Shown: positions 19,286-45,768 of the stretch, piece by piece
How the letters are laid out: each line of letters opens with the position of its first letter
Position numbering within the stretch: position 1 is the first letter of the stretch
From: Thermoproteota archaeon
Lineage (GTDB): Archaea > Thermoproteota > Thermoprotei_A > EX4484-217-1
Reading direction: 5' to 3'
Assembly: GCA_029258915.1 (NCBI GenBank)
Contig: JAPDJU010000012.1
Span: 53,149 to 117,148, forward strand
DNA: 64,000 bases
The notes under the pieces: generated by a model
The model's database searches: none
What the model saw: the letters and a program-made list of their open reading frames with translations, nothing else
What the model was told of the DNA's origin: nothing
Made by a program: the position numbers and the translations under genes

Positions 19286-19460
19286 GATAAAAACCCCATT
19301 CAAGGTATAACATTGTTTAAGCACATATTAATATTTGGGGGAGCTATTGAAGCTTAAGCTTTAAATAAGCATTACAGACCCTAATCTACTTATAATGCTG
19401 AGAATTTAATCATGTATTTTAGGTATTGTTTAAACTTTTCTAAGTAAACTATTTCTCAGG

Positions 19461-23603: not shown

Positions 23604-23614
23604 GTGGAAAAACA

Positions 23615-24397: not shown

Positions 24398-24402
24398 AAT
24401 CT

Positions 24403-25440: not shown

Positions 25441-25474
25441 TTTTATAGTTAAAGTAATCAGAGGTATGTCCTTA

Positions 25475-26515: not shown

Positions 26516-27471
26516 TGTTTTCTAGTCCTCTTGACGGTTTTTAGCAGTTTAGATATTTTTTCAAGTTTTATTTTTGAAGCTAAACCTTCAGGCACAATAA
26601 GCAAGGTAATTATTAGAATAATAAAAGATATAGCCGGTCTAAAAGCCGTTGAGATATTAAGTGGCGGTTTAGATAAGAAATATATTCCTATGATTTCAGC
26701 GAAACCAACAGCATAACCACCAAGCATTGCACCATATATACTTAAAAATCCTCCTAAAATTGATGATGCAAAGGTTCTCAATAACATGTACCACCCAACT
26801 TCAGGTCCTGCCGTTATTCTGAAAGGTAAGAAAGCTCCTGCTATTCCTGCAAGACCACCAGCTAGAAACCATGATATAGCATATACTTTGTTTACGTTAA
26901 CACCTAAAACTTCAGCTAAATTTGGATTCTCAATAGCAGCCCTCATTGCTATACCAAATTTTGTTTTTGTTAGAAGAATGTAGAATGAAAATATTAAGAA
27001 TATAGATAGTGCTGACGAAATAATAAATAAATAAGGAAGTGATAACGTGCCTAAAGTTATCGTATAGTCTCTAAATAGAAACCCTCTAGAGATGACTTTG
27101 TAAGTTTCTGAAAGTATATCTGCATAGACGTGTAGTGATGATCTTAGGACAACTTCTAAGGCTATTGATGCTATCATTAAACCTATTATCCCTGTACCCC
27201 TATCAGCTAGCGGTTTAAAGATAAATAAATATGATAATAAAGCTATTGTACCTGATATTAGGAATGCGAGTGGAATGCTAAGGTAAGGGCTAATTTTGAG
27301 ATAAGTATACATAAAATACGCAACATAGGTTCCTATAGTTGCCAAATCTCCATGAGCAAAATTAGGTATTCTTAGGGTAATGTAGGTTAAAGTGAGACCT
27401 ACAGCTAACAGTACTAATAGGTTCCCAAATATCATAGCATCTATGAGTAATGTTGTTTCTGCCGTTTTCAA
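26512..27471 (-). CDS. livH: Branched-chain amino acid ABC permease
   Basis: GLTLTY..PNFAHG, TKFGIAMRA and LAEVLGVN. Confidence 0.88.
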   Translation of the reverse strand: MKTAETTLLIDAMIFGNLLVLLAVGLTLTYITLRIPNFAHGDLATIGTYVAYFMYTYLKISPYLSIPLAFLISGTIALLSYLFIFKPLADRGTGIIGLMIASIALEVVLRSSLHVYADILSETYKVISRGFLFRDYTITLGTLSLPYLFIISSALSIFLIFSFYILLTKTKFGIAMRAAIENPNLAEVLGVNVNKVYAISWFLAGGLAGIAGAFLPFRITAGPEVGWYMLLRTFASSILGGFLSIYGAMLGGYAVGFAEIIGIYFLSKPPLNISTAFRPAISFIILIITLLIVPEGLASKIKLEKISKLLKTVKRTRKQ

Positions 27472-27606
27472 CCACCGCGCTATTTAATTGCTGGAAATTT
27501 TTGAAATTTAAATTTTAAATATGTTTCTAATAGGTTTACTAAGGAAACCTATATATAGTTCTTCTTTCAATTCCTATAAACTAAAATACAAAATCTGCAA
27601 TGATAG

Positions 27607-28857
27607 GTGAATAGTGTAATGCAAAAATATCTAGTTTACATAGTAGTTTCATTAATAATCGGTTTAATTGTGGGTTCCGGTGTAACATTTGCTCTCGCAG
27701 GTGTAGCAGCTCCACAACAACCAGCATTACCGTCAGAAGTGCCAATAGGTGCATTACTGCCACTTTCAGGGGTGCTTTCGTCTTTTGGTGAAAAGTGGAA
27801 GCATAGTTTAGAATTAGCTGAAGAAGATATTAACGCATATGTATCTAAGCTTGGTCTAAATGTTAAATTTAAAATATATGTTGAGGATACAAAAACATCT
27901 CCTGAGGGAGCATTAGCAGCTTTACAAACGCTTTCAGCTAAAGGAATAAAGCTTGTTGTAGGTCCTGCTGCAAGCTCAGAAGTTGCAGCTATAAAGTCTC
28001 ATGCTGATGCTAATAAAATAGTTATATTTAGTCCATCTTCAACAGCCCCACAGTTAGCTATAAAGGATGACTACATATTTAGAGCTGTAACATCGGACGT
28101 ATATCAAGGCAAGGCTTTAGCCAGACTAATGTGGGAAAAAGGCGTTAGAAAAGTAGTCATAATGTATAGAGGAGATGACTGGGGTGTAGGATTATTTAAT
28201 GTAGTTAAAGCAAGGTTTGAAGAACTAGGAGGTCAAATAGAAGGAGTAAGATATGATCCTGAAGCACCGGAATTATCCACCGAGGTCAGAAGAGTTTCAG
28301 ACTATGTTAAGGAATTTGGTGCCGACGAAGAAACAGGAGTCCTATTTATATCTTTTGAAGACGATGGATTAAACATATTATCTCTTGCTAAAGAAGACCC
28401 CATTCTAACTAAGGTTAAATGGTTTGGAACAGATGGGATAGCCTATTCAACTAAAATAGCTAAACAAGTAGGTGATGTTGTTGAAAGTCTTGGAGTATTA
28501 GCAACAGTTTATTTACCTGAAGAATCCCCGAAGAAAGAACAGTTTAAGGAAAGATATAAGGAAAGATACGGTATAGAGCCGGATCCATATACTTATAACA
28601 TATATGATGCGGCTTGGATATTGGCATTAGCTGTTCTTGAAGCAGGAAAGTACGATGGTGAGGTTGTCGCTAAAGTTCTTCCAGAAATAGCATCAAGATA
28701 TTTCGGAGTTTCAGGATGGGTTCTTCTCGACAAAACAGGCGATAGAGTAGGAGAGAGATATGTAATAACAACTGTTGTAAGTGAAAATGGAGAGTTTGTT
28801 TGGAAAGATGTAGGCGTATACATAAGTCCTCTTGACAAAGTGGAGTTGTCGACGTAA
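27607..28857 (+). CDS. livK: Branched-chain amino acid ABC substrate-binding protein
   Basis: IGALLPLSG, EDTKTSP, SPSSTAP and YDAAW, with an N-terminal anchor. Confidence 0.85.
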   Translation: MNSVMQKYLVYIVVSLIIGLIVGSGVTFALAGVAAPQQPALPSEVPIGALLPLSGVLSSFGEKWKHSLELAEEDINAYVSKLGLNVKFKIYVEDTKTSPEGALAALQTLSAKGIKLVVGPAASSEVAAIKSHADANKIVIFSPSSTAPQLAIKDDYIFRAVTSDVYQGKALARLMWEKGVRKVVIMYRGDDWGVGLFNVVKARFEELGGQIEGVRYDPEAPELSTEVRRVSDYVKEFGADEETGVLFISFEDDGLNILSLAKEDPILTKVKWFGTDGIAYSTKIAKQVGDVVESLGVLATVYLPEESPKKEQFKERYKERYGIEPDPYTYNIYDAAWILALAVLEAGKYDGEVVAKVLPEIASRYFGVSGWVLLDKTGDRVGERYVITTVVSENGEFVWKDVGVYISPLDKVELST

Positions 28858-28922
28858 AGCAAATATACTATCTCTACATTTTTCATCTATCCCAAAATAC
28901 TGGAAAATAAATGGGATAGGTA

Positions 28923-29681
28923 ATGAGGGATCTGCTAAAAACCGAGAATGTAAAGAAGAAGTTCGGAGGGGTAATAGCACTTAATGGAGTTTCTGCTAGT
29001 GTAAAGAAACGTACTTTAACTATGATTATAGGTCCTAATGGTAGCGGCAAAACAACGTTAATCAACGTGATTTCAGGGATATATAAACCTGATGAAGGTA
29101 AAGTTGAGTATAATGGACTAGATATTACAGGTAAACCACCGCATGAAATATATAAAATGGGGATTGTTAGAACATTCCAAATACCCTTACTATTTACAAA
29201 CTTAACAGTTTTAGAAAACTTACTTGTAGCCGCCAGGATAAATGAGGGTGAAAGATTCTTAAACGCTATTTTTAAAACTAAATGGCTTAAACGAGAGGAA
29301 GAACTCGTAGAAAAAGCCTATAGAATACTTGAACTTTTAAACTTAGACCACCTATGGAATCAACCTGTTTTCAAACTAAGTGGAGGCCAAATGAAGCTTA
29401 TTGAAATAGGAAGAGCATTAATGAGTAATCCACGATTAGTTCTAATGGATGAACCTATTGCAGGTGTCAATCCTAAACTCGCACATGAAATATTTGACCA
29501 CATAGTTCAGTTAAAGAATAAACTGAGTTTATCCTTCTTAATAGTTGAACATAGGTTAGATGTAGCACTTAGATATGTTAACTACGTTTATGCTATGCAC
29601 AGAGGTAAGATAGTGGCTGAAGGAAAACCCGAAGAAGTACTTGAAAACCCTGAAGTTTCAAAAGCTTACTTAGGCGAATAA
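28923..29681 (+). CDS. livG: Branched-chain amino acid ABC ATPase
   Basis: KFGGVIAL, GPNGSGKT, RTFQ and C-terminal AYLGE. Confidence 0.9.
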   Translation: MRDLLKTENVKKKFGGVIALNGVSASVKKRTLTMIIGPNGSGKTTLINVISGIYKPDEGKVEYNGLDITGKPPHEIYKMGIVRTFQIPLLFTNLTVLENLLVAARINEGERFLNAIFKTKWLKREEELVEKAYRILELLNLDHLWNQPVFKLSGGQMKLIEIGRALMSNPRLVLMDEPIAGVNPKLAHEIFDHIVQLKNKLSLSFLIVEHRLDVALRYVNYVYAMHRGKIVAEGKPEEVLENPEVSKAYLGE

Positions 29682-29683
29682 AC

Positions 29684-30397
29684 ATGCCAAGTAGCATAAT
29701 TGCTCTTAACGACGTAAATGCAGGTTATGGGAAATTTCAGGTACTATTCGGAGTATCCATGGCGGCAGATTATAGGGAAATAACAGTTATTGTCGGACCG
29801 AATGGTAGCGGAAAATCAACATTGTTAAGAACTATATTTGGGCTTACGTCAATATACAGTGGTGAAGTAATATTTAAGAATATCAATATAACATCAAAGA
29901 AACCTCATGAAATAGCTAAACTGGGTATAGCCTATTTACCTCAACTTGAAAACGTTTTCCTAAACCTTACAGTCAAGGAGAACATACTATTAGCGACATA
30001 TATTCATGAGGGAGAAACCATGGATATCGAAGAAGCGATAGGCCTTTTTCCGCAGCTTAAAGCATTATTTGAAAGAAAAGCTTCAACGCTAAGTGGTGGA
30101 GAAAGGCAAATGCTAGCAATGACAATGGCCCTCCTTAGAAAACCATCGTTAATGCTTTTAGACGAACCAACGGCAAATATGGCACCTAAAATAGCTAAAT
30201 TAATATTTGAAAAAATAATTGAGCTAAAAGAAAACTATAACATCCCTGTTATTCTCGTTGAGCAAAACGCTAAAAAAGCTCTTGAAATAGGTGATAAAGC
30301 ATATCTCCTTGTAGCTGGAAGAAAAATATTCGAAGGATTACCGCAAGAACTTCTTGAAAAACCCGACCTAACGAAAGTTTATTTGGGTATAGATTAA
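29684..30397 (+). CDS. livF: Branched-chain amino acid ABC ATPase
   Basis: AGYG, GPNGSGKS, LSGGERQML and VEQN. Confidence 0.9.
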   Translation: MPSSIIALNDVNAGYGKFQVLFGVSMAADYREITVIVGPNGSGKSTLLRTIFGLTSIYSGEVIFKNINITSKKPHEIAKLGIAYLPQLENVFLNLTVKENILLATYIHEGETMDIEEAIGLFPQLKALFERKASTLSGGERQMLAMTMALLRKPSLMLLDEPTANMAPKIAKLIFEKIIELKENYNIPVILVEQNAKKALEIGDKAYLLVAGRKIFEGLPQELLEKPDLTKVYLGID

Positions 30398-31277: not shown

Positions 31278-32324
31278 TTGATAGTAATGTATAAGAAAAT
31301 AGCTATTGTTGGTGCAGGTTCTGCTGGTGCTTTTCTGGCTTCCCTCCTTTCTCAAGCTGGAGCAAATGTTAATATCTATGAGAAATCTAGGAAAATAGGA
31401 TGTTTTTGTGCTTGGGGAACTATAGAATCTGAGCTTAAAAACTTACTTAAATATGTTGGTTTAAACTTTGAAGACTACATTTTATCTAAAGTTAAGAGAA
31501 TTATTGTTGACGATATAGAACTTAAGGTAACAAACCTCGTAACTTTCAATAAACCTAAGCTAATATATGATCTAATTAAAGGTTTAAGGGTTTTAAGAGT
31601 AGAAGCAACTAAGGAGATTGCTGGAAAATACGACTTAGTAATAGATGCTACAGGTTATAAAAGAAGCCTTTTACCAAAACTGAAGAATGATCTCTTAACA
31701 CCAACTATTGAATATGTTATTAGAACCAAAGACCTTGATGAAAATACGATATACATTAAGTTCGGTAAAATAGGTTATGCGTGGATATTTCCTATGGGTG
31801 ATGGTTATTGGCATATAGGCGCAGGAGATATCATAGTTAATCCTATATTGCTTGTTAAGAAAATATTTAAGAAATTCAATATTAAGGGTAAGGTAACATG
31901 TTCATGTGAAAGCTATATACGGTCTAAACCTCCAGCATATTGTAAGCCCATGGTTTACCGTAATATAGTTGGATGCGGTGAAAGTGTGGGTACAGTTTTC
32001 CCAATAACTGGTGAGGGAATAGCTCACTCCATGAAATGTTCTTTAATCCTCTTTAACCACATATTAAATGATGGATATTTGAAAAAATATGAAGAAGCTG
32101 TTATAAAGGAGTTTAAATGGTTTAACTCCATATTTAAACTTACATGGCTCTTAACTGGGTCCAGATTTAAACTTGTTTTACCTCTTTTGAAAAGCTCGCT
32201 GTCAATATTAAAATACGCTAAAAGATTTGGTGCTAAACCAGCTGCTGTTGTCAGAGCACTAGCTAAATTATTATTAAGAAGAAAAAATTTAGCTAAATAT
32301 GAATTATTGGAAGCTCCTTTATAG
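31278..32324 (+). CDS. Geranylgeranyl-reductase-like FAD oxidoreductase
   Basis: IVGAGSAG, IDATG, GYAWIFP and GESVG..PITGEGI. Confidence 0.8.
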   Translation: MIVMYKKIAIVGAGSAGAFLASLLSQAGANVNIYEKSRKIGCFCAWGTIESELKNLLKYVGLNFEDYILSKVKRIIVDDIELKVTNLVTFNKPKLIYDLIKGLRVLRVEATKEIAGKYDLVIDATGYKRSLLPKLKNDLLTPTIEYVIRTKDLDENTIYIKFGKIGYAWIFPMGDGYWHIGAGDIIVNPILLVKKIFKKFNIKGKVTCSCESYIRSKPPAYCKPMVYRNIVGCGESVGTVFPITGEGIAHSMKCSLILFNHILNDGYLKKYEEAVIKEFKWFNSIFKLTWLLTGSRFKLVLPLLKSSLSILKYAKRFGAKPAAVVRALAKLLLRRKNLAKYELLEAPL

Positions 32325-32748
32325 ATCTCATGACAAGTGATGTACTTGTCGATAAGACGCCTTCTATTTGCCCTAAAATGTCCAGTATTCTAGCTAATCC
32401 CTCATTGTCTGTGGCATAAACTTTAGCTACCGCAGAATATTCTCCTGTAATATCATATAGTTCTACTACTTCCTTAATTTTAGAAATTTTTTCTAAAGCT
32501 TCATTATGCTTTTTAGGATCAGTCTTAATAAACACATAGGCTCTAATATTAAAACCTAATTTAGCAGGATCAACTATAGCAATAATGGATTTAATGTACC
32601 CTAGTTCCTTTAACCTTTTTACTCTAAGATGAACAGTTGAGGGACTAACATCGACTTCTTTAGCTATTTCAGCATATGTTAAATCAGCGTTCTTTTGTAA
32701 TATATTCAGAATTCTCTTATCAAGGTCATCGATAATATATTTAGCCAA
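32293..32748 (-). CDS. Lrp/AsnC family transcriptional regulator
   Basis: IDDLDKRILNILQKNA..EIAKEV..VHLRVKRL..G.I and YDITGEY. Confidence 0.92.
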   Translation of the reverse strand: MAKYIIDDLDKRILNILQKNADLTYAEIAKEVDVSPSTVHLRVKRLKELGYIKSIIAIVDPAKLGFNIRAYVFIKTDPKKHNEALEKISKIKEVVELYDITGEYSAVAKVYATDNEGLARILDILGQIEGVLSTSTSLVMRSIKELPIIHI

Positions 32749-33547: not shown

Positions 33548-34621
33548 TTATGTTTTAGGTTCTCCCATGGTCATGGACATAACTGCCTTCTGCACATGTA
33601 GCCTATTTTCTGCTTCTTCAAAGTACAGAGATTTCTTGTATGCATCTAAAACTTCATCTGTTACTTCCTGACCTCTATCTGCTGGTCCACAGTGCATGTA
33701 ATATGGTTTTCCAGTTTCTTCTAGAAGATCTAATGTTACTATCCAGTTCTTGAACTTATTTTGATATGCTTTAGCTCCTTCCTTATCTACAACTTCATTA
33801 TATGGTGGGAAAAACCTTCTGGGACTCCATGCTTTCGGATATACGAACGTAGCCCCTTCAAAAGCTTCCTTCATATCGTGAGTTACTGTTAGGCTTCCAC
33901 CGTACTGGTCAACTAGTTCCTTGGCTTTCCTCATTACTTCATCCATTAGCTCAAATCCTGGTGGATGAGCTATAACAACTTCTGCTCCAAACATGGCAGC
34001 AATTAATGTTACACTTTGAGGTACAGCTAAAGGTTTAAGCCCGCCAGAATACGCATAGCTTACTACAAACTTTTTGCCTCTTAAATCTTTAGGCCATCCA
34101 AGAGCTTCTAAAGCTGCCATAATGTCCGCTAGCGCTTGGAACGGATGATATACATCATCTTCCATGTTAAGTACCGGTATTGTAGCCCATTTAGCAAACT
34201 CGTTAATAACCCTGTGACCTCTGCCAATAATCCACTTTGCTGCATCACCGTATATTCTAATAGCTATTGCGTTACCATACCTGCTAAGAACTCTTGCAAC
34301 ATCACCAATAGCCTCTGTTTTGTAGGGTATCATATCTTCAGGCAGAGTTGGTGTGTAGACATCTTGTGGGCTAAGGAAGTGTGCATGGCCGCCTAGCTGG
34401 AACATGCCTGCTTCAAAACTATTTCTTGTCCTCAACGATCTGTTATAGAATAGCATAAACAATGTTTTACCTTGTAAATAGGGTGTTGGCATACCCTTAG
34501 AAAACTTCTCTTTAAGATCTTTAGCTGCCTCAATAACCTTTTTTACTTCCTCTTGTGTATAGTCTATGTTCTTTAGCCAATCTCTACCTTTAAAATATCC
34601 CACATACCAGGGTGTGCTCAA
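33548..34621 (-). CDS. YgeW-like (knotted-type) carbamoyltransferase, paralog 2
   Basis: RSLRTR carbamoyl-P motif, HPFQ, YAYSGGLKPLAVPQS (compare YgeW WAYSPSYGKPLSVPQG), YPKAW and HCGP. TTG start with GAGGTGA SD. Confidence 0.85.
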   Translation of the reverse strand: MSTPWYVGYFKGRDWLKNIDYTQEEVKKVIEAAKDLKEKFSKGMPTPYLQGKTLFMLFYNRSLRTRNSFEAGMFQLGGHAHFLSPQDVYTPTLPEDMIPYKTEAIGDVARVLSRYGNAIAIRIYGDAAKWIIGRGHRVINEFAKWATIPVLNMEDDVYHPFQALADIMAALEALGWPKDLRGKKFVVSYAYSGGLKPLAVPQSVTLIAAMFGAEVVIAHPPGFELMDEVMRKAKELVDQYGGSLTVTHDMKEAFEGATFVYPKAWSPRRFFPPYNEVVDKEGAKAYQNKFKNWIVTLDLLEETGKPYYMHCGPADRGQEVTDEVLDAYKKSLYFEEAENRLHVQKAVMSMTMGEPKT

Positions 34622-34813
34622 AGCTTTTCACCTCGGAGGGGACACTAAGGTATAGTATTTAAGAGTATTAAAATTCTATTATAAACCTAAACATAACTTC
34701 TAAATTAGAAACGGTAACGTATTTTTAAATGGTTTATAATAAAAAAGGAGGCCATGGAATACATGGTTAAGTAAGAAAATAAAGTCTATTACAGTTATTC
34801 TTTCTTCTTACCT

Positions 34814-35857
34814 CTAAACTAAGCCACCCATGGTTAATACGAGGATAGCGGCTTTAGTGAATAAATTGTTTTCTGCCTGTTCGTAAATTACAGATCTCGA
34901 AGAGTCCATTACAGCATCGTCTGCTTCATAGTCTCTAAGGACTGGAAGCACATGAGTTATTATGCCATGGTCGTCCATTAAATCAAGGTCTTCAACTTTA
35001 AGCCTCCAGTCACGATATTTCTTATATATCTCTAACTCCTCCTTACCGAAAGCTGCAGCTCCAAGTTCAGCAAGTTTTCTTGAACACCAGCTTCTTGGAA
35101 ATACAACATGGGCTCCTTGAAGTGCTTCCCTATAGTCGTTAACAAATTCTACTGAGCCTCCGCTTTCTTTAGCATTTTGTTTAGCCCATTCAATATATTT
35201 TTCTGGAAGCTCAAAGCCTGGTGGATGAGCTATAACAACATCCATACCGAACCTTGTTGCTATAAGCATGTCCGCGTTAATACTGCAATATCCTCTGATT
35301 ATTGGAGCATAAGCCCACATAATAACGAATTTTTTACCTTCCACATTACCTAGTTTTTCCTCTACAGTCATAATGTCTCCAAGTGCTTGGGTTGGATGTT
35401 CCTGATCATCAGCCATGTTAATAACTGGTACTCTTGCATGTTTAGCAAATTCTCTGATAACTTTATGTCCTTCACCATACTTATAGTCTATTGCCTTGTC
35501 TAAAATTCTAATACCTACACCATTGCCAAATATTTCGTACATTTTAGCGAGGTCTTTTAGTGCTTCACCCTCCTTAACTCTAGTCATTCTAGCTTCAACA
35601 TACTGTGCGTGACCTCCAAGCAGTGTCATTGCCGTTTCAAAAGCAGCCCTAGTTCTAGTTGATGGCGCATAAAATAACATTATGAAAGTTTTCTTTTCAA
35701 GATAATTAGGTAACCCCTTGGCCCCTCTGTAATAATACAGTCTTTTAAGTTCTTGAGCCAGTTCGATAGCCGCCCTTAGTTCCTCTATAGTCCATTCTTG
35801 CGTAGTTACTAGGTCTTTACCAACAAGATCTGAAATTGTAGATTTAAGGAAAACCAT
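34814..35857 (-). CDS. YgeW-like carbamoyltransferase, paralog 1
   Basis: PSTRTR, HPTQ, MWAYAP, TRFGMDVVIAHPPGFEL, FPRSW and HVLP. Confidence 0.85.
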   Translation of the reverse strand: MVFLKSTISDLVGKDLVTTQEWTIEELRAAIELAQELKRLYYYRGAKGLPNYLEKKTFIMLFYAPSTRTRAAFETAMTLLGGHAQYVEARMTRVKEGEALKDLAKMYEIFGNGVGIRILDKAIDYKYGEGHKVIREFAKHARVPVINMADDQEHPTQALGDIMTVEEKLGNVEGKKFVIMWAYAPIIRGYCSINADMLIATRFGMDVVIAHPPGFELPEKYIEWAKQNAKESGGSVEFVNDYREALQGAHVVFPRSWCSRKLAELGAAAFGKEELEIYKKYRDWRLKVEDLDLMDDHGIITHVLPVLRDYEADDAVMDSSRSVIYEQAENNLFTKAAILVLTMGGLV

Positions 35858-36020
35858 TTTTCGGAAACACCTCTAATAAATAGATAGTATTAAAAACTTT
35901 ATAGGTATCGTAAGTTAGCTTGTTTGCCTTAGTATACGAGAATTCGCTGAGATATCTCAATGGGTAAGCAAAGGAGAGAAAACACATGGAAAAATTGGTT
36001 TTCATGAAGTAGTATAATTC

Positions 36021-37283
36021 TTAAGCATAACGCTCTCTTAAAGTTTTTTCGAAATCTTCAAGTTTAGGCTCTATTTTCGGTGCATCACCACTTACTTTCT
36101 TAACTATATCGGGATCCTTTAGACCATGCCCGGTTATCAGTACCACTACAGTATCTCCTCTATCTATAGTTCTCTCCTCCAGCAACTTCATGTACCCTGC
36201 TAAACTAGCTACACCCGAGGGCTCGGCAAATATTCCTTCGTACTTTGCAAGCATTTTCATAGCCTTAAGTATGAGTTCATCACTTACCTCTTCGGCTACA
36301 CCATTTGTTTCATGTAGCGCCTTTAAACCTCCATCATGATCCCAAGGATACGGATCTTCGAGACCTGTAGCTATTGTTTCAGGTTTAGGCCAAGGCTTTA
36401 CCTTAAATGCTTCAGCTTTCTCATTCCACGCTCTAACGAAAGGCGGATTTCCTGTAGACTGAATTGCAGCTAATTTAGGTAAGTTATCAATAAATCCTAG
36501 TTCCTTAAAGTCTCTAAACCCTTTCCAAACACTTGTAAGTAATGCAGCAGCACCTACAGGCACTATAACCCAGTCGGGAATATTCCAATTTAGCTGTTCA
36601 ACTACTTCATATGATATTGTTTTTGGCCCCTCAATTTGATACGGGTTGAAAGGTCCGAAGCTTGGACTAGGATACCATCCATACTTTTCATAAGTTAGCT
36701 TCATCATTTTCACCGTAGGATCTTCTTTGCCAAGTCCTTTAACTCTGAATACTTTAGCACCATAGAATAATAATTGTGCAACCTTACCGTAACCTGCTTC
36801 TTCAATTACAAAAGCATATGTTTCTAGGCCTGCTTTAGCACTGTAAGCAGCTAACGCTGCTGCAGCATTACCGCTCGAAGCAGTAACTGTAACTTTATAG
36901 CCGAACTCAACAGCCATACTAACTGCAACAGACATACCACGGTCTTTAAAGCTTCCAGTAGGATTTCTTGTCTCATCCTTTAAGTACAGGTTTTTAACCC
37001 TAAGTTCTTCAGCAAGCCTTTTCGCCTTAATTAGAGGTGTTCCCCCTTCACCTAAAGTTACTATGTTCTTATCTTCGCTTACAGGCATTAACTCCCTATA
37101 CCGCCACATGTAAAATCTTCTTTTCTCAAGAATATGCTTTGAAAACACTTCCTTTACTTTCTTATAATCGTAATATATGTCTAACCTACCTAAGTCCTTG
37201 TTTTCGCAAACAATAGGTTTCTGATCTAAGTAGTAGACTTTACCACATCTGCTGCATTTCAAGTATTTAACGTAGGAAACCAT
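36021..37283 (-). CDS. Threonine-synthase-like fold-type II PLP enzyme
   Basis: LGEGGTPL, NPTGSFKDRG, ASSGNA, EGPKT, EGIFAEPS and TGHGLKD. Confidence 0.88.
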   Translation of the reverse strand: MVSYVKYLKCSRCGKVYYLDQKPIVCENKDLGRLDIYYDYKKVKEVFSKHILEKRRFYMWRYRELMPVSEDKNIVTLGEGGTPLIKAKRLAEELRVKNLYLKDETRNPTGSFKDRGMSVAVSMAVEFGYKVTVTASSGNAAAALAAYSAKAGLETYAFVIEEAGYGKVAQLLFYGAKVFRVKGLGKEDPTVKMMKLTYEKYGWYPSPSFGPFNPYQIEGPKTISYEVVEQLNWNIPDWVIVPVGAAALLTSVWKGFRDFKELGFIDNLPKLAAIQSTGNPPFVRAWNEKAEAFKVKPWPKPETIATGLEDPYPWDHDGGLKALHETNGVAEEVSDELILKAMKMLAKYEGIFAEPSGVASLAGYMKLLEERTIDRGDTVVVLITGHGLKDPDIVKKVSGDAPKIEPKLEDFEKTLRERYA

Positions 37284-37459
37284 ATTTTACCCCAATATAG
37301 TAAACAAGCCGATGCTTATTATAATTGTTTTTAAAGGAATAATTAAATATAGACTGAAGAGGACCTGGTTAGAGGTTTTGCTGCATATTTAAATGAATAC
37401 TTATATACATCTTTATTTGAAACTATTTATTATACAAAATTCTTAGAGGATGTAAAATC

Positions 37460-38410
37460 ATGAGCGAGAATAAGGGTTTAGTTACAATAGCTTTAGGAGG
37501 CAATGCCTTCCTTCAAAAGGGTCAAAAAGGAACAGTTGAGGAACAGTGGGATAATGTTGTTAAAGCTATGAAGCAAGTAGCCGACATTATAGAAAGAGGT
37601 TATAGAGTGATTTTAACTCACGGTAATGGACCTCAAGTAGGTAATATTTTGGAGTGGATGGATGCTTTAAGGGAGAAAATACCGCCATTAACAATGGATT
37701 TTGCTAATGCAATGACTCAGGGATGGATAGGTTACATGATTCAGCAAGCACTAACAAATGAGCTTAGAAGAAGAGGTATAAATAGACATGTAGTTACCGT
37801 AGTAAACCGTGTTCTCGTAAGGAAGGATGACCCAGCATTCCAAAATCCAACAAAATATGTTGGTCCATATTACGATGAGGAAACTGCTAAGAGAATTGCT
37901 AGGGAGAAAGGGTGGGCTATGAAACCTGACCCTAGAGGTGGATGGAGAAGAGTTGTTCCATCACCCGACCCTGTAGGTAATGTAGAAATAGAAGCAATAA
38001 GAACTCTACTTATAAACGGATTCATAGTCGTAGCTTCAGGTGGTGGTGGAATACCAGTAATTGAAGAAAATAGAGAAATTAAGGGTGTTGAAGCAGTTAT
38101 TGATAAAGACCTTGCAGGTGAAAGGCTGGCTTCTCTTGTTAGAGCAGATTATTTCGTAATAGTAACAGATGTTGAAGGAGTCTACTTGCACTTTAGAACT
38201 CCGCAGCAAAAGCTTTTAAGAAAATTAACTATTAGTGAAGCAGAAAAACTATACAGAGAAGGCCACTTCCCCCCTGGAAGCATGGGTCCTAAAGTATTAG
38301 CAGCAATAAGGTTCATAAAGAATGGAGGGGAAAAAGCAGCAATAGGCCACCTATATAAGGCACTAGATATTTTAGAAGGAAGAGCAGGAACAACCATAGT
38401 ACCTGATTAG
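37460..38410 (+). CDS. arcC: Carbamate kinase
   Basis: [34 protein letters not shown] and GSMGPK. Confidence 0.96.
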
Positions 38411-38588: not shown

Positions 38589-40172
38589 GTGTTTTTGTTG
38601 AGCGAAGAGAAGCCATCGGCAGTGTTGATGAAAGAAATTACTAAGAGGTTCCCTGGCGTAGTTGCCTTAGACAATGTAACATTCGAGGTAAGGCGAGGTG
38701 AAATACATGGTCTTCTTGGAGAAAACGGTGCTGGAAAAACAACATTAATGAACATACTTTACGGCGTATATAGGGCTGACGAGGGAGAAATACTTATTAA
38801 CGGTAAGAGAGTCTCTATAAAATCTCCTAAAGACGCTATAAAGCTTGGAATAGGTATGGTTCCCCAACATTTCAAACTTGTTATGGCACATTCTGTTGTT
38901 GAGAATGTTATTTTAGGGTTGAAGGAGTTCGGATTAGTACTTAATCTTAAGGAAGCTTCTAGGAAAATTAGGGAATTAGCTGAACGATACGGTTTTAGAA
39001 TAGACCCTAAAGCTAAAATATGGCAACTATCTATGGGTGAAAGACAGTATGTGGAGCTTCTCAAAGCATTAATAAGAAACGCGAACATACTTATTCTCGA
39101 CGAACCTACAACAGTTCTTACACCTCAAGAAACAAGAGAGCTATTTAAAACTCTCAAGAAAATGAAAGAAGAAGGGAGATCAATAATATTTATAACACAT
39201 AAACTTGAGGAAGCATTAACAGTTTGCGATAGAATAACGGTCCTTAGAAGAGGACATGTAATAGGAACGGTTACCCCCCAGGAAGTTACGGAAGCAGACT
39301 TAGCAAAAATGATGGTTGGTAGGGAAGTTCTTTTCAGAATTAAGAGAGAACATAGAAAAGTTATTATTGAAACTCCAATACTTAAAGTTGAAAACTTAAA
39401 TGTTTTAAGCGATAAAGGTGTTTTAGCCGTAAAGAACGTTTCTTTCGAAGTTTATCCGGGTGAAATTTTCGGTATTGCAGGTATTGCTGGAAGCGGTCAA
39501 GAAGAGCTTGCAGAAGCTATTGCTGGTCTAAGAAAACCTTTAAGAGGTAAAATAATAATCGAGGGACAGGATGTAACCGAAGCCTCACCTAAAAAAATTT
39601 TTGAACTAGGTGTTGCATACATTCCAGAGGATAGAATTGGCGTTGGAATATTACCTAACTTAACAGTTTGGGAGAACATAGTTTTAAGACATCATAGATA
39701 TCCGCCTATGGCCAAGAATGTGTTCTTATTAGATTTCAATGAAATATACGGGTTCGTGAATAGGAGAATTAAAGAACTTAACGTAATAACATCAAGCATT
39801 TTTGCCCCTGCAAAAACACTTTCAGGTGGAAACATACAAAGACTCATCTTAGCTAGAGAGCTAGCTGAAAATCCCCGGAGAAAAACTAAACTTATAATTG
39901 CAGTTTATCCTACAAGAGGTCTTGACGTTGGAGCAACAGAATATGTTAGAAAAGTGCTTTTACGGCAAAGAGATAAAGGTATAGCTGTTCTTTTAATATC
40001 TGAAGACCTTGAAGAAATACTTATGTTAAGCGATAGAATAGCTGTAATCCATAATGGAGAAATTATGGGTATAGTTTCAGCCGAAGAAGCAAACATCGAA
40101 GAAATAGGGTTAATGATGGGTGGAGTGCTAAAGAAAACTTCTCAAAAGGTTAAAGAAAACCCTAAAACCTAA
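38589..40172 (+). CDS. Nucleoside/sugar-type ABC ATPase with two ABC domains
   Basis: KRFPGVVA, GENGAGKT, ILDEPT, LSGGNIQR and PTRGLDVGA. Confidence 0.92.
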   Translation: MFLLSEEKPSAVLMKEITKRFPGVVALDNVTFEVRRGEIHGLLGENGAGKTTLMNILYGVYRADEGEILINGKRVSIKSPKDAIKLGIGMVPQHFKLVMAHSVVENVILGLKEFGLVLNLKEASRKIRELAERYGFRIDPKAKIWQLSMGERQYVELLKALIRNANILILDEPTTVLTPQETRELFKTLKKMKEEGRSIIFITHKLEEALTVCDRITVLRRGHVIGTVTPQEVTEADLAKMMVGREVLFRIKREHRKVIIETPILKVENLNVLSDKGVLAVKNVSFEVYPGEIFGIAGIAGSGQEELAEAIAGLRKPLRGKIIIEGQDVTEASPKKIFELGVAYIPEDRIGVGILPNLTVWENIVLRHHRYPPMAKNVFLLDFNEIYGFVNRRIKELNVITSSIFAPAKTLSGGNIQRLILARELAENPRRKTKLIIAVYPTRGLDVGATEYVRKVLLRQRDKGIAVLLISEDLEEILMLSDRIAVIHNGEIMGIVSAEEANIEEIGLMMGGVLKKTSQKVKENPKT

Positions 40173-40189: not shown

Positions 40190-41353
40190 ATGATGGCTAT
40201 CAGGATCCCTGGAACAAAATATGCTGTGAAAGTTGAAAAAAGACTCATCGTAAGAAGAGAAATACCAGCAATAGTATCTATAGCATCAGCGATAGCCGGT
40301 ATTCTTTTAGGCGGTCTCATCTTTATAGCAGTAGGTATTTCGCCTATAGATGTTTATTCAAGAATAGGGAGAATAGCAATAAGTCCTACAGCACTTATGG
40401 GAGCTATCGAAATAGCTTTACCTATAATGTTTACATCCATGGCTTTAGTGCTCCCCTTTAGAATGGCGTTTTATAACATTGGTGGTGAAGGTCAGTTTGA
40501 AGTAGGAGCAATAGCTGCAATGATACCTGTAATATTTTATTGGAGCGGTATGGACCTACCGCAGTTTTTATATCTACCTATAATGTTTATGTTAGCATTC
40601 ATAGCTGGCGGTTTCTGGGGCCTTTTACCAGCATTCTTAAGAGCTAAATGGAGGGTAAACGAAATACTAGTGACATTAATGCTTAACACTATTTCACTAC
40701 AGTTAATATGGTGGCTTACAACGCCTGGAGGCCCATGGAATGAAGCAAATCCTGCATTTAAGGAAAGATATTTAGCTTATCTAAAAGAGTTAGGTGTCCA
40801 TTTAATACCAGGCTTTAAAGGAACACCTGTAATCCCTGAGTTTGCTAGGCTGCCTAGAATACCTGGTACATTAGTTAATTCAGGGATATTGGTGGCTATT
40901 ATTATAGCGGCAATACTGTACTTTATATGTACAAAAACGTTGCTAGGATATGAAGTTAGAGTTGTTGGTGATAGTGAGCGAGGAGCTATGTATGCTGGGA
41001 TAAATTATTTGAAATTAGTTTTAATAGTAATGTTCATAAGCGGAGGTCTTGCAGGGCTAGGAGGTTTTATAGGTATTACAGCGTTTCTACCTAAGCTATC
41101 GCCTGAAATAGGTGTTGCAGGTTACGGTTACGCTGGGATAATTGTTGCATGGCTTGCAAGGTTAAACCCAATAGCCTGTCTTCTTGTTTCATTTTTCTTT
41201 GGAATATTGACAAAGTCCGCTGATCTGTTACAGCAGGAACTAAAGATTTCAAGGTTTATTGCTGTAGGTTTTGAAGGACTGATATTCATACTCTTAGTCT
41301 TGGGCGATTTCTTTGTACACTACAAGGTAAGATTAATTAAAGTTAGGAGGTAA
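40190..41353 (+). CDS. Nucleoside-type ABC permease
   Basis: YNIGGEGQ, VNEILVTLMLN and SGGLAGL..GYGYAGI. Confidence 0.9.
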   Translation: MMAIRIPGTKYAVKVEKRLIVRREIPAIVSIASAIAGILLGGLIFIAVGISPIDVYSRIGRIAISPTALMGAIEIALPIMFTSMALVLPFRMAFYNIGGEGQFEVGAIAAMIPVIFYWSGMDLPQFLYLPIMFMLAFIAGGFWGLLPAFLRAKWRVNEILVTLMLNTISLQLIWWLTTPGGPWNEANPAFKERYLAYLKELGVHLIPGFKGTPVIPEFARLPRIPGTLVNSGILVAIIIAAILYFICTKTLLGYEVRVVGDSERGAMYAGINYLKLVLIVMFISGGLAGLGGFIGITAFLPKLSPEIGVAGYGYAGIIVAWLARLNPIACLLVSFFFGILTKSADLLQQELKISRFIAVGFEGLIFILLVLGDFFVHYKVRLIKVRR

Positions 41354-41358
41354 GTGCG

Positions 41359-42318
41359 ATGGTAGAACTAACTATGATAAATCAATTTCTAATAGGTGCA
41401 TTAACTGTCGGTACAATATACCTCATAGCAACGCTTGGTGAAGTCCTTGCAGAACGCTCCGGGATAGTCAACTTAGGGCTTGAAGGGCTTATGGAAGTCG
41501 GTGCCACGGTAGGTATTATAGTGGCTATTTTCACGGAGAATCCATGGCTAGGTTTTCTAACAGCATTCATTACTGCAGCTATTATCTCAGTTATACATGC
41601 TTTTGCATGTATAACACTAAAACTTAATCAGTTTGCAAGCGGGTTAGCATTATATATTTTCGGATTGGGTATCGGTATAACGTTTAGGGGATACGCTAGG
41701 GACGTAATGTTAGGGCCGAAAGAATTAATGAAAATACCTAAAATAAGACTATATCCTGTAAAAATACCGTTGCTAGGCGATTTACCCGTTATAGGTGCAT
41801 TATTTAGCTTAAATGTCATGGCTTATTTTGCAGTTATCTTAAGTATAGTGTTCTGGTTTATACTTTTCAGAACGAGAATAGGCTTAGACATTAGGTCTGT
41901 TGGAGAAAATCCTGCAGCAGCTGATGCGGCTGGAATAAATGTTTTTAGACTAAGATACATAGCGGTGATAATTGGCGGAGGTATGGCTGGTTTATCAGGT
42001 GCATATCTTATGCTAGCACATACGCCGCAGATTATGGGTGCTCCAATAATATTAGGAAGAGGATGGATAGCAATAGCGCTGGTAATATTCTCCTTCTGGA
42101 ATCCTTTAAGAGCACTTTTAGGTGCTTATTTATTTGGAGGTTTAGAAATAGCATATTTCTGGCTTCAAGGGATTGAAATATTTAAAGGAGTAATTCCACT
42201 ACTTAAAGCAGTACCTCACGTGTCAGCAATAATACTATTAACCATTATGTCCATTGAAGCGCTTAGAAGAAGAATAGGTGCCCCAGAAGCCCTCGGGAAA
42301 CCGTATTCTAGAGAATGA
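41359..42318 (+). CDS. Nucleoside-type ABC permease
   Basis: ERSGIVNLGLEG, GENPAAADAAG, GRGWIAIA and APEALGKPY. Confidence 0.9.
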   Translation: MVELTMINQFLIGALTVGTIYLIATLGEVLAERSGIVNLGLEGLMEVGATVGIIVAIFTENPWLGFLTAFITAAIISVIHAFACITLKLNQFASGLALYIFGLGIGITFRGYARDVMLGPKELMKIPKIRLYPVKIPLLGDLPVIGALFSLNVMAYFAVILSIVFWFILFRTRIGLDIRSVGENPAAADAAGINVFRLRYIAVIIGGGMAGLSGAYLMLAHTPQIMGAPIILGRGWIAIALVIFSFWNPLRALLGAYLFGGLEIAYFWLQGIEIFKGVIPLLKAVPHVSAIILLTIMSIEALRRRIGAPEALGKPYSRE

Positions 42319-42469: not shown

Positions 42470-43828
42470 ATGGGTGAAGTCACTAGAAGAGACTTCCTTA
42501 AGGGGCTTATAGGAGGTCTCGTTGTAGGAGCAGCATTAGGTCTGGGAGGAGGTTATGCAGCAGCACCTAAAGGTGTAGTTACAGAGACAGTAACGAGAAC
42601 AGAAACAGTAACTGAAACAGTAACAGCGTCTCCCTCGCCGAGTCCTCCACCACCCGCTAAGAAAATTAAAGCAGGATTTATTTACGTAGGGCCGATAGGA
42701 GATTATGGATGGACATATGCACATAATTCTGGAAGACTTTACGTTGAAAAACAATTTGGAGGAACTGTGGAAACCGTATATATTGAAAGCGTTCCAGAAG
42801 CCGAAGCCTTACCTAAAATAGAGTCTTTAATTGCTGAAGGATGTAAGGTAATATTTACTACAAGCTTCGGCTTTATGGACCCAACACTTGAAGCTGCAAA
42901 GAAATATCCCGACGTATGGTTCTGGCATTGCTCCGGCTATAAACGATGGGATAATATGGGAACTTACTTCGCAGAACTATATCAACCATACTACTTATGC
43001 GGTTTAGTTGCTGGAGCCATATCACAAACGCTTAAGTTCGGCTATGTTGCAGCTTATCCTATACCTGAAGTTGTAAGACACATTAACAGCTGGGTTCTAG
43101 GAATATGGGAAGGATTATGGCGTAGATATAAACGTGGAGATCTAAGCTTAGATGATTTAAAGAAAGTAGAAGTACATGTTAAATGGTTGTACTCATGGTA
43201 TGATCCGCCAGCTGCAACCGATGCTGCGAGAAGCATGGTTGAAATGTACGATGCTGACGTACTAGCTTTTACAGAAGACTCGCCGGCAACATTACAGGTT
43301 GCTGAAGAATATCAGAAAGCAGGAAAGAAAGTTTGGAGCTATAGCCACTATAGTAACATGAGAGATTATGGTCCAACAGCCCATTTAATAGGACAATTAG
43401 TCGACTGGGGTTTAATGTACGAATACATTTTAGCATACTATCTTGCAGGGGTAGCTAGAAGTATGGACCTATGGTGGCTAATGGGTGATGGAGGAGATAT
43501 TAGAGAGGGATGGAGAAAGGGTAAAGGAGCCGCGTTCATATGGCTTGATGAATGGGGAGACTTGAAAGCAGAGCTTGCAGCTAAAGGAGTACCAGACTGG
43601 GCAATAGATCTACTACTTAAAAGAGAAACATTAATGAAAGAAAGATACTGGGATCCATGGAGTGGAAGCTTCTGGGCACCAATATTCAAGGAATTGACAG
43701 GCAAAGAAGGAATAGTTGACAGAGAAGGGAATGTAAGAATAAAGCCGGGAGAAGTAGCAGACCATGACCTATTATGGAGTATCGACTGGTTTGTATGGGG
43801 TCTAGCAGAACCTGTACCTAAGGGCTAA
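42470..43828 (+). CDS. BMP family (purine/nucleoside) substrate-binding protein with Tat signal and T/S/P linker
   Basis: TRRDFLK twin-arginine signal, VTETVTRTETVTETVTASPSPSPPPP linker, GFIYVGPIGDYGWTYAH, TSFGFM and IPEVVRHIN. Confidence 0.9.
   Translation: MGEVTRRDFLKGLIGGLVVGAALGLGGGYAAAPKGVVTETVTRTETVTETVTASPSPSPPPPAKKIKAGFIYVGPIGDYGWTYAHNSGRLYVEKQFGGTVETVYIESVPEAEALPKIESLIAEGCKVIFTTSFGFMDPTLEAAKKYPDVWFWHCSGYKRWDNMGTYFAELYQPYYLCGLVAGAISQTLKFGYVAAYPIPEVVRHINSWVLGIWEGLWRRYKRGDLSLDDLKKVEVHVKWLYSWYDPPAATDAARSMVEMYDADVLAFTEDSPATLQVAEEYQKAGKKVWSYSHYSNMRDYGPTAHLIGQLVDWGLMYEYILAYYLAGVARSMDLWWLMGDGGDIREGWRKGKGAAFIWLDEWGDLKAELAAKGVPDWAIDLLLKRETLMKERYWDPWSGSFWAPIFKELTGKEGIVDREGNVRIKPGEVADHDLLWSIDWFVWGLAEPVPKG
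42581..42626 (+). repeat. Short degenerate tandem repeat encoding the Thr-rich linker
   Basis: Repeated GA(A/G)ACAGTAAC units encode TETVT repeats. Confidence 0.6.
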
Positions 43829-44285: not shown

Positions 44286-45197
44286 GTGATAATCATGGCT
44301 TCTGATGAAGAATTCGTTTTAACTAGAATGAGTATGGAGGAGCATCTTAAAGAGTTAAGATATAGGGTAAAGATATCGCTAATATCTGTGGCCGCAATAA
44401 CGTTAGCTTTAATGGTAGTACCTGCTGATCCAAATTTTTTAAGCAACCCATTTATTTTTTATAAGCCCTTAGTTTCAGTCATCCTTGATTACATAAGGGT
44501 TTACACATTACCTGAAGAAGTAGAGCTTGTAGGTATAAGGTTTTTAGCTCCAATAGAGCTATATCTTTTTTCATCTTTGATACTAGGAGTTATACTGAGC
44601 ATGCCAATAATAGCTTATGAAGCATATAAGTTCATAGACCCAGCACTTTATTCTCACGAGAAGAAGCTAATATATCCGTTTACACTTGCATTTACAACAT
44701 TATTTACTGTAGGGGCTCTTTTTGGATTATTCCTGGTTATACCGTTTCTATTAAAAGCATCCTTACTATTTTACGGAATTGTAGGAGCAGCACCATTGGT
44801 TTATGTGACAGATTTCTATAGCTTAGTACTGTACACAACGCTTCTTTCGGGACTTGCCTTTACATTCCCAGCTGTTTTTATTCTTTTAGTGAGATTAGGG
44901 TTTATAGATACATCAATAATAGAGGGTAAAAGATTACCATTCTACTTCGCAATATTCGTACTGACAGCAATAATAACACCAGATGGAGGCCCAATAGCGG
45001 ACTTCATTCTATTCTTACCAATAATCATACTGATGGAAATAGCGGTAAAAATAGCTAAGAAATATGAGAAAGAAAGGCAAATACCGAAAAGAAGCATATT
45101 TACAAAAGTAGTAGAGCCAATAAAATGCCCATACTGCGGACAAACAATACCGGGAAATACAACATTCTGCCCAAAATGCGGAAAATCAATAAGGTAA
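44286..45197 (+). CDS. tatC: Twin-arginine translocase TatC with C-terminal zinc ribbon
   Basis: EHLKELRYR, FIDPALYSHEK and AIITPD, then CPYCG..FCPKCG. Confidence 0.9.
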   Translation: MIIMASDEEFVLTRMSMEEHLKELRYRVKISLISVAAITLALMVVPADPNFLSNPFIFYKPLVSVILDYIRVYTLPEEVELVGIRFLAPIELYLFSSLILGVILSMPIIAYEAYKFIDPALYSHEKKLIYPFTLAFTTLFTVGALFGLFLVIPFLLKASLLFYGIVGAAPLVYVTDFYSLVLYTTLLSGLAFTFPAVFILLVRLGFIDTSIIEGKRLPFYFAIFVLTAIITPDGGPIADFILFLPIIILMEIAVKIAKKYEKERQIPKRSIFTKVVEPIKCPYCGQTIPGNTTFCPKCGKSIR

Positions 45198-45744: not shown

Positions 45745-45768
45745 ATAGGTTACAGGGGTGTAACTTAT
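45745..45768. promoter_or_regulatory. Inverted repeat covering the SD and start of the second AAA ATPase
   Basis: ATAGGTTACA-GGGG-TGTAACTTAT (9 of 10 arm positions match). Confidence 0.5.

Follow-up and report, generated by a model that had tools for sequence, protein, structure and literature searches.

The archaeal contig JAPDJU010000012.1 (contig C7 of the host genome, G000) was analysed over a stretch of 64,000 nucleotides, here called the window, and this study concerns a cluster of four genes at window positions 33548–38410. Open reading frames (ORFs) and their translations define two transcarbamylase paralogs, denoted TCB (357 amino acids (aa), 33548–34621) and TCA (347 aa, 34814–35857), and a pyridoxal phosphate (PLP) enzyme of the ThrC family (420 aa, 36021–37283), all on the minus strand, together with a carbamate kinase (CK, 37460–38410) on the plus strand that diverges from them across a 176-bp spacer. 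The ThrC-like protein matches the PALP domain (250.8 bits) and carries a Cys-rich N-terminal extension of about 58 aa. CK is of the ArcC/YqeA type, with a score above the cut-off of the arcC model TIGR00746 (415.8 versus 358 bits) and 42% identity to Escherichia coli YqeA, and it is the sole CK of the host genome. Downstream of CK and on the same strand, family profile searches identified an ABC importer ATPase with two ABC domains (38589–40172), two permeases (BPD_transp_2; 40190–42318, comprising 40190–41353 and 41359–42318) and a substrate-binding protein of the Bmp/PnrA family (42470–43828; PF02608, 107 bits) with a Tat signal (TIGR01409), as in importers of the nucleoside/purine type. A plus-strand gene for TatC with a C-terminal zinc-ribbon tail follows at 44286–45197.

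A first-pass annotation of this DNA had described two divergent carbamoyltransferase paralogs distinguished by STRTR/HVLP and SLRTR/HCGP motifs, co-oriented with a ThrC-like enzyme and divergent from CK and a purine-type ABC importer. The translations, ORFs and profiles bear out this layout.

Identity of the two transcarbamylases

TCA and TCB are 38% identical to each other, and each matches both OTCace Pfam domains with E values of 1e-30 to 1e-36. Neither reaches a curated NCBIfam cut-off: both score best on the acetylornithine transcarbamylase (AOTC) model NF003384 (263.1 bits for TCB and 223.1 for TCA, against 288) and second best on the ornithine carbamoyltransferase (OTC) model TIGR00658 (224 and 205, against 280.85), with lower scores on the putrescine transcarbamylase (PTC) model (190 and 188, against 500) and on the YgeW models TIGR03316 and NF005538 (143.4/146.8 and 139.2/145.6, against 500/453). 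When the two proteins are compared by sequence with solved structures in the PDB, TCA is closest to the Pyrococcus furiosus OTC (193 bits, followed by AOTC with 166 and YgeW with 127) and TCB to AOTC (190, followed by OTC with 179 and YgeW with 125). Within E. coli, YgeW is the nearest protein to both TCA (153 bits) and TCB (147 bits), with ArgI at 96–127 bits; in the reverse direction, an E. coli YgeW query finds TCA and TCB with the same scores in the host genome, compared with 80 bits for ArgF. Canonical ArgF and PyrB are encoded separately in this genome.

Alignment shows that the segments WAY/YAY, FG(M/A)(D/E)VV(I/L)AHP-PGFEL and (Y/F)P(K/R)xW are common to TCA, TCB, E. coli YgeW (where they read TWAY, FGMDVTLAHPEGYDL and YPKSW) and Xanthomonas AOTC. 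They are absent from OTC and PTC, and OTCs have GD..NN and DVW.SMG at the aligned positions; the DxxxSMG ornithine loop of OTC is found in neither TCA nor TCB. The YgeW-like segments named in the first-pass annotation are thus real, but AOTC has them too, and by profile score the proteins are not YgeW (139–147 bits against cut-offs of 453–500). The WAY/WTY, AHP and PKxW segments, an extended 120s loop and the shared clade described below liken TCA and TCB to the knotted transcarbamylases YgeW (YTCase) and AOTC (PMC4581275, PMC4016543). Unlike the 396-aa YgeW, both are short and lack its N-terminal extension, its terminal helices, its 240s-loop insertion of about 16 residues and its C-terminal tail. 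The carbamoyl-phosphate motifs SxRTR and HPxQ are complete in both. Of the published YTCase motif set, S[LT]RT / HP[TMF]Q / H[AVC]LP (Table 1 of PMC4016543), TCA fits all three (STRT, HPTQ, HVLP); TCB (SLRT, HPFQ, HCGP) fails the third, having HCGP in place of the HxLP of YgeW. The 80s loop is short and YgeW-like in TCA and long and AOTC-like in TCB, and a Pro-rich loop (SPRRFFPPY) is present in TCB only, TCA having no proline at that position.

Maximum-likelihood trees were built from 23 TCA and 12 TCB sequences taken from 22 of 80 related loci (described below) plus the window's own pair, with a reference set that left out SOTC, DPTCase and UGTCase. TCA and TCB are each monophyletic (100/100) and fall with Xanthomonas AOTC, E. 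coli YgeW and a Clostridium novyi transcarbamylase in a clade apart from OTC and PTC (100/97). Neither paralog groups with canonical ArgF or ArcB, a grouping that would have told against the first-pass annotation. AOTC lies outside both families, and the branching order within the clade is weakly supported (69/12, 81/46). With few references, YgeW, a long branch, is sister to TCA at 97/88; the support falls to 81/46 once AOTC, PTC and the C. novyi enzyme are added, and YgeW then groups with the last of these (93/89). The phylogeny suggested in the first-pass annotation places both proteins in a clade with YgeW and AOTC, and a specific YgeW–TCA sisterhood is not stable. By sequence, TCA and TCB are two distinct transcarbamylase families within the AOTC/YgeW clade and outside OTC/PTC.

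The C. novyi enzyme is encoded on plasmid pCN1 (L099, 96192–107154) in the order XdhC/CoxI, dpaL, hydA, YgeY-family hydrolase and 'ornithine carbamoyltransferase'. Its identity to TCB is 41%, and it looks like a YgeW-type enzyme, short and wrongly annotated, from a uricolytic cluster carried by the plasmid. AF2 models of TCB and TCA (pLDDT 86.5 and 77.7) match AOTC and the P. furiosus OTC about equally, with TM scores of 0.77–0.83. As a family test, the fold search with these models was set aside: it did not separate AOTC, OTC and YgeW (TM 0.76–0.83) and is silent on substrate and on the knot.

A co-inherited gene set, probably for purine degradation

In E. coli, the reductive uric acid/2,8-dioxopurine pathway is encoded by xdhD-ygfM, ygfK, ssnA, hyuA, ygeW, ygeY, ygeX and yqeA (bioRxiv 10.1101/2025.04.24.650524, PMC12507026, PMC12990295). 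With the E. coli proteins as queries and the curated NCBIfam models scored beside them, the rest of a 2,8-dioxopurine-type gene set was found on the same contig, mostly outside the four-gene interval, and E. coli YqeA has CK as its best match in the genome. Upstream of the window, C7:48554–52192 encodes a three-subunit molybdenum (Mo) enzyme of the xanthine dehydrogenase (XDH) family with FAD and 2Fe-2S subunits; its best models are XdhA and PucD, both below cut-off (XdhA, 559 versus 780 bits), and E. coli XdhA and XdhD both match the single Mo hydroxylase at C7:48554–50932. A plus-strand reductase gene at C7:52615–53775, the C-terminal part of which occupies window positions 1–627, combines a DHO_dh domain (PF01180) with two [4Fe-4S] clusters. 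We call this protein UacX-like by family (PF01180), not by sequence, and the PreA model gives it 172 bits against a cut-off of 335. YgfK has no match in the host genome with the E. coli query, and its curated model finds no ortholog there.

Four amidohydrolases lie within the window. An SsnA-like enzyme (19461–20852, plus strand) has SsnA as its best model (NF005540, 386.7 versus 444 bits; a second SsnA model, 364.3 versus 455.5) and is the best match of E. coli SsnA in the genome (181 bits). A deaminase-group amidohydrolase (46945–48339, minus strand), with 5′-deoxyadenosine deaminase, chlorohydrolase and 8-oxoguanine deaminase as its best models, is a probable purine deaminase. An adenine deaminase (48661–50460, plus strand; TIGR01178, 590.7 versus 472.5 bits) is followed by a cyclic amidohydrolase (50475–51833, plus strand) placed by profile search among hydantoinase/dihydroorotase/allantoinase-like enzymes; as the best match of E. 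coli HyuA in the genome (170 bits, 27% identity), it is the HyuA analogue. A DUF134 helix–turn–helix protein (18962–19324, minus strand) is divergent from the SsnA-like gene, with a transporter of the MFS family alongside (17713–18915, plus strand); these are a possible local regulator and a possible second uptake system.

A pattern scan with one genome per species found 530 loci with a TCA relative, of which 80 were kept, many of them limited by their contigs. They come from Desulfurococcales, Bathyarchaeia, Nitrososphaerota (Calditenuaceae), Korarchaeia-type metagenome-assembled genomes (MAGs), Baldrarchaeota and Thermoplasmatota. TCB is present in 38 of the 80, CK in 33, the ThrC-like gene in 32, the UacX-like gene in 18, the SsnA-like gene in 17, the CysK-like gene described below in 11 and a YgeY-like gene in 4. 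TCB adjoins TCA in 25 of the 38 loci with both, the deaminase-group amidohydrolase adjoins TCA in 19 of the 80, and the importer ATPase is linked to TCA in 13. The most complete arrangements are compact: locus L090 holds, within 17 kb, the ThrC-like gene, three Mo-enzyme subunits, the CysK-like gene, adenine deaminase, deaminase, TCA, the UacX-like and SsnA-like genes, TCB and hydantoinase, and locus L086 has the row TCA-TCB-CK-SsnA-like-UacX-like-CysK-like-ThrC-like-YgeY-like.

Co-distribution is tight in a class sample of 151 genomes (including the host) from 59 genera, 35 of which carry both transcarbamylases. TCA orthologs (at least 54% identity) occur in 36 genomes, the 35 and G020, and TCB orthologs (at least 69%) in 37, the 35 with G023 and G007; the three genomes with a single transcarbamylase are incomplete (59%, 67% and 89% complete for G020, G023 and G007). 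The SsnA-like gene is found in exactly the 35 genomes with the pair, and the ThrC-like (at least 61%) and UacX-like genes each in 36, the 35 and G020. The Mo large subunit (at least 65%) is encoded by 36 genomes (34 of the 35, G020 and G142) and the CysK-like enzyme (at least 59%) by 37 (34 of the 35, G020, G142 and a fragment in G023). The hydantoinase-like gene and CK are more widespread, in 54 and 90 genomes, respectively; both are in all 35 pair carriers, and the hydantoinase-like gene in 19 others. The module can be scattered and yet remain co-distributed: TCA and TCB lie about 640 kb apart in G042 (938850 versus 296632) and 55 kb apart in G051. Because the sample genomes are kin, the pattern speaks for a module inherited together and does not tally independent events. 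The presence of this gene set on the same contig and its co-inheritance with the pair agree with the earlier suggestion of a fermentation of purines or ureido compounds feeding CK.

What is missing from this module is DpaL, the lyase of the bacterial pathway: its model TIGR03528 has no match in the host genome and none in the 151 class genomes (0/151) at an E value of 1e-30 or better, and a query with E. coli YgeX found nothing in the host genome or the 80 related loci. With DpaL absent, the co-inherited ThrC-like enzyme becomes a candidate for its place; the first-pass annotation had listed it as a PLP lyase. The protein itself belongs to the threonine synthase family by its scores (NF006050, 354.1 versus 303 bits; TIGR00260, 234 versus 167), its nearest PDB entries are threonine synthases, and the genome has two further ThrC paralogs. 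With three paralogs and a distribution that is that of the purine module, a biosynthetic threonine synthase role is doubtful. A second PLP enzyme, CysK/SbnA-like (C7:47520–48548, which is L093:14321–15349; cysKM model, 325.8 versus 344 bits), is encoded a short way upstream of the window; its gene and that of the XDH-type Mo enzyme stand back to back and are co-inherited. The two travel together even in G142, which is without the transcarbamylase, SsnA-like and ThrC-like genes. The CysK-like enzyme could handle diaminopropionate, or it could work for the Mo enzyme, for instance by supplying sulfur.

Could the cluster instead be anabolic and unrelated to purines, with variant arginine-pathway transcarbamylases, a true threonine synthase and a CK acting as carbamoyl-phosphate synthetase? 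Carbamate-kinase-like enzymes make carbamoyl phosphate in some hyperthermophiles. The best profiles of the transcarbamylases are those of AOTC and OTC, the ThrC-like protein is above its threonine synthase cut-off, and TCA homologs from Desulfurococcales, Bathyarchaeia, Thermoprotei and 'Thaumarchaeota' MAGs go by the name of ornithine carbamoyltransferase in public records. However, the OTC, AOTC and PTC cut-offs are all missed, the SMG loop of OTC is absent, the trees place both families outside OTC/PTC, the host genome has its own canonical ArgF and PyrB and two other ThrC paralogs, and distribution and synteny track purine-catabolic genes. We therefore regard an anabolic role as highly improbable, and the public label as probably a systematic mis-annotation.

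Proposed fate of the two ureido groups

We put at about 0.6 the probability that archaea have a variant of the reductive (2,8-dioxopurine, 'yanthine') route of purine degradation and that the cluster forms its carbamoyl-phosphate- and ATP-yielding end. The basis for this reading is the family-level identity of the genes, their synteny, their strict co-inheritance and the absence of DpaL and YgfK; every substrate and reaction given below is a prediction from sequence. Purines or nucleosides would enter through the Bmp-type ABC importer, be deaminated by adenine deaminase and the second, deaminase-type amidohydrolase, and be processed by the XDH-family Mo enzyme and the UacX-like DHO_dh/Fe-S reductase. 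The SsnA-like and hydantoinase-like amidohydrolases would then open the rings to yield 2,3-diureidopropionate, from which TCA and TCB would release carbamoyl phosphate by phosphorolysis of the ureido groups, and the adjacent CK would turn carbamoyl phosphate into ATP. The remaining diaminopropionate would be converted to pyruvate and ammonia most likely by the ThrC-like enzyme, or possibly the CysK-like one, in place of DpaL/YgeX. Plausibly, each transcarbamylase takes one of the two ureido groups, for a yield of two ATP per purine; genomes that have a YgeY-family hydrolase, the host's among them, would possess a hydrolytic alternative. The published order of ureido cleavage is disputed (PMC12990295), so that neither group can be assigned to a particular transcarbamylase.

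The first-pass annotation had gone further, proposing that the second transcarbamylase replaces the YgeY hydrolase. In the host genome this does not hold: a YgeY-family hydrolase is encoded at C4:148927–150111 (L006:1477–2661), with 340.5 bits on NF009555 against a cut-off of 321, and this M20 gene is the best match of E. coli YgeY (150 bits). It is unlinked to the module, lying on another contig beside a gene of unassigned family, whereas the related locus L086 holds its YgeY-like gene inside the cluster (349.8 bits). Upstream of the YgeY-like gene lies a gene for a 416-aa protein; this gene and two unassigned ORFs of L086 and L079 were discarded as module members, being mutually unrelated and not conserved with the module. 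Scores in the class sample are bimodal, with YgeY-like proteins at 262–350 bits in 17 genomes, with a truncated copy in G014, and every other M20 match at 215 bits or less. By protein and family search, a YgeY-like gene is present in 17 of the 35 genomes with the transcarbamylase pair and missing from the other 18, of which eight are single-contig assemblies (G019, G041, G042, G044, G059, G064, G069 and G086). In these eight, neither ureido group can be removed by YgeY, which makes the two transcarbamylases, present in every case, the obvious candidates. Replacement in the simple sense proposed earlier is countered by the fact that the pair is equally constant where YgeY is present; what stands is that YgeY does not always accompany it.

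The same observations bear on whether TCA and TCB might be subunits of one hetero-oligomeric transcarbamylase, the second ureido group being hydrolysed by YgeY or another amidohydrolase and one ATP being gained, as in E. coli. Several observations would suit such a heteromer. In the transcarbamylase trimer, adjoining subunits share their active sites (PMC4581275); of the 38 genomes with either TCA or TCB, 35 have both; the two genes are neighbours in 25 of 38 loci; and a YgeY-family gene is kept in the host genome. Yet SxRTR and HPxQ are intact in both proteins, the adjacent TCB and TCA genes are separated by 192 bp and so are not translationally coupled, and in many closed genomes, among them G042 and G051, the two are unlinked. 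TCA-like genes also occur without TCB in Thermoplasmatota and Baldrarchaeota genomes, and 18 of the 35 pair carriers have no YgeY. On balance a heteromer appears quite unlikely.

In three Thermoplasmatota or 'Euryarchaeota UBA287' MAGs (L065, L081 and L087), a TCA-like gene directly adjoins a YgeY-like M20 gene (38–39% identity to that of the host), and searches of these genomes found no TCB ortholog, no SsnA-like match at an E value of 1e-60 or better and ThrC-family matches of just 38–43% identity. This pair is possibly a different, two-gene module for ureido compounds. Such genomes, where neither an SsnA-like match nor a close ThrC-like ortholog was found, favour the idea that TCA and TCB serve different branches or substrates instead of the two ureido groups of one molecule. 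One might, for example, act on purine-derived diureidopropionate. The other might take an intermediate whose ring is already open but whose hydantoin is still uncleaved, beta-ureidopropionate derived from pyrimidines, or a different N-carbamoyl compound; in the pyrimidine version, the UacX-like reductase and the hydantoinase could act as dihydropyrimidine dehydrogenase and dihydropyrimidinase. UacX/PreA-like and hydantoinase-like families do occur in reductive pyrimidine degradation (PMC4016543, PMC12507026), and the second-substrate loops of the two transcarbamylases differ, the long 80s loop and the Pro-rich loop being confined to TCB. Against this, TCA, TCB and the SsnA-like gene share the same distribution in the class sample, the XDH-type enzyme, adenine deaminase and nucleoside/purine-type importer point to purines, and a pyrimidine branch would leave the co-inherited PLP enzyme unexplained. 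Separate substrates are in our view unlikely.

Several points weigh against the purine pathway with phosphorolysis of both ureido groups. Most of the proteins fall below the curated cut-offs of their bacterial namesakes, so that their proposed orthology derives from best hits and context, and in the host genome their genes do not form one operon, being dispersed along about 57 kb of contig C7 and on a second contig. The YgeY-family hydrolase of the host means that the bacterial scheme of one transcarbamylase plus hydrolase would suffice there, and the TCA–YgeY pairs of Thermoplasmatota, with no TCB or SsnA-like gene found, indicate that the TCA family may not be tied to purines everywhere. With a single XDH-family enzyme, where bacteria use two, the scheme does not account for how 2,8-dioxopurine would form. 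With its score on the NCBI threonine synthase model, the ThrC-like protein might by sequence have a plain biosynthetic role, and the co-inherited CysK-like enzyme could equally be the DpaL substitute. Finally, the kin in the sample are not independent (18 of the 59 genera).

Weighing these points, we retain the archaeal purine pathway as our preferred reading and extend it tentatively, at somewhat less than even odds, to a broader proposal: hyperthermophilic and other anaerobic archaea (Desulfurococcales, Bathyarchaeia, Caldarchaeales and Korarchaeia) may ferment purines through a 2,8-dioxopurine pathway of their own. TCA and TCB would conserve both ureido groups as carbamoyl phosphate, which would double the yield to two ATP per purine, a recruited ThrC-family enzyme would be the diaminopropionate lyase, and phosphorolysis would be the sole route in lineages without YgeY.

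Relation to known pathways and flanking genes

The proposed pathway shares with that of E. coli the families of its XDH-type Mo enzyme, reductase, SsnA-type and hydantoinase-type amidohydrolases, transcarbamylase and CK, a YgeY-family hydrolase in the host genome and the logic of gaining ATP through carbamoyl phosphate. It differs in its archaeal hosts, in having two transcarbamylase families, neither passing the YgeW models, where E. coli has one YgeW, in the co-inherited ThrC-like and CysK-like PLP enzymes in place of DpaL/YgeX, in the lack of YgeY from about half of the archaeal carriers and in the single XDH-type enzyme of the host. A description of the module as an ortholog of the E. coli cluster was dropped in favour of 'variant', YgfK and DpaL being absent by curated models. 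Clostridioides difficile offers a partial parallel: there, UacX (PF01180) replaces YgfK and UacY replaces YgeW (PMC12507026), and the archaeon likewise has a DHO_dh-family (PF01180) Fe-S reductase in place of YgfK. In contrast to the two archaeal transcarbamylases, however, C. difficile exchanges transcarbamylase and carbamate kinase for a hydrolase and gains no ATP (PMC12507026).

Two further transcarbamylases, compared with TCA and TCB by description only, provide precedents. The ureidoglycine carbamoyltransferase (UGTCase) of Rubrobacter xylanophilus, a pseudo-ATCase acting on allantoate in the oxidative route (PMC4016543), shows a transcarbamylase replacing an amidohydrolase in purine catabolism beside a CK. 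The L-2,3-diaminopropionate transcarbamylase (DPTCase) of viomycin/zwittermicin biosynthesis, named in PMC4581275, is a precedent for carbamoyl transfer between diaminopropionate and albizziin, but a biosynthetic one.

The anaerobic uric acid pathway of gut bacteria was worked out only in 2025 and has been described as bacterial: the word 'archaea' is absent from the main texts of bioRxiv 10.1101/2025.04.24.650524 and PMC12507026, and a commentary speaks of a pathway restricted to anaerobic bacteria (PMC12990295). Full-text literature searches found no archaeal description; the supplementary cluster tables of the 2025 papers, which lay outside these searches, could list archaeal hits. On our reading, the archaeal form, with dual transcarbamylase, UacX-type reductase and no DpaL, is a variant, newly described here, of a known pathway. 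If the reading is correct, the pathway would reach archaeal lineages that are widespread in hot springs, vents and sediments and would give a function to two transcarbamylase families publicly labelled 'ornithine carbamoyltransferase', a label that can suggest arginine-deiminase or urea-cycle metabolism in metagenomes where none may exist. It would also supply natural material for asking which of the ureido groups is the first to be cleaved, and by what type of enzyme. As a design it would have the higher yield of two ATP per purine, and DpaL would have a non-orthologous replacement. Since there are carriers in culture, such as Thermogladius with its closed genome (L085), the idea is testable.

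The cluster is flanked by a candidate regulator of the Lrp/AsnC family (32293–32748, minus strand), singled out by neighbourhood conservation and kept beside the cluster at 75–89% identity in related loci L013, L014, L016 and L017. A shared operator motif was sought by 10-mer counting upstream of 10 module genes, and only AT-rich words emerged, each in at most six regions; no operator is proposed. Between the SsnA-like gene and the transcarbamylase cluster, positions 22647–30397 encode two more ABC import systems, one of the NMT1/THI5 type and the other of a branched-chain/urea type with an ANF_receptor binding protein. Two paralogous 'archaeal ATPase' (PF01637) proteins with an MCM-type C-terminal winged helix are encoded on the plus strand at 9676–10788 and 45767–46858, one of them sitting between the importer/TatC genes and the deaminase genes. 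A 666-aa protein of the aldehyde:ferredoxin oxidoreductase family (AFOR_N and AFOR_C domains) is encoded on the minus strand at 13537–15537.

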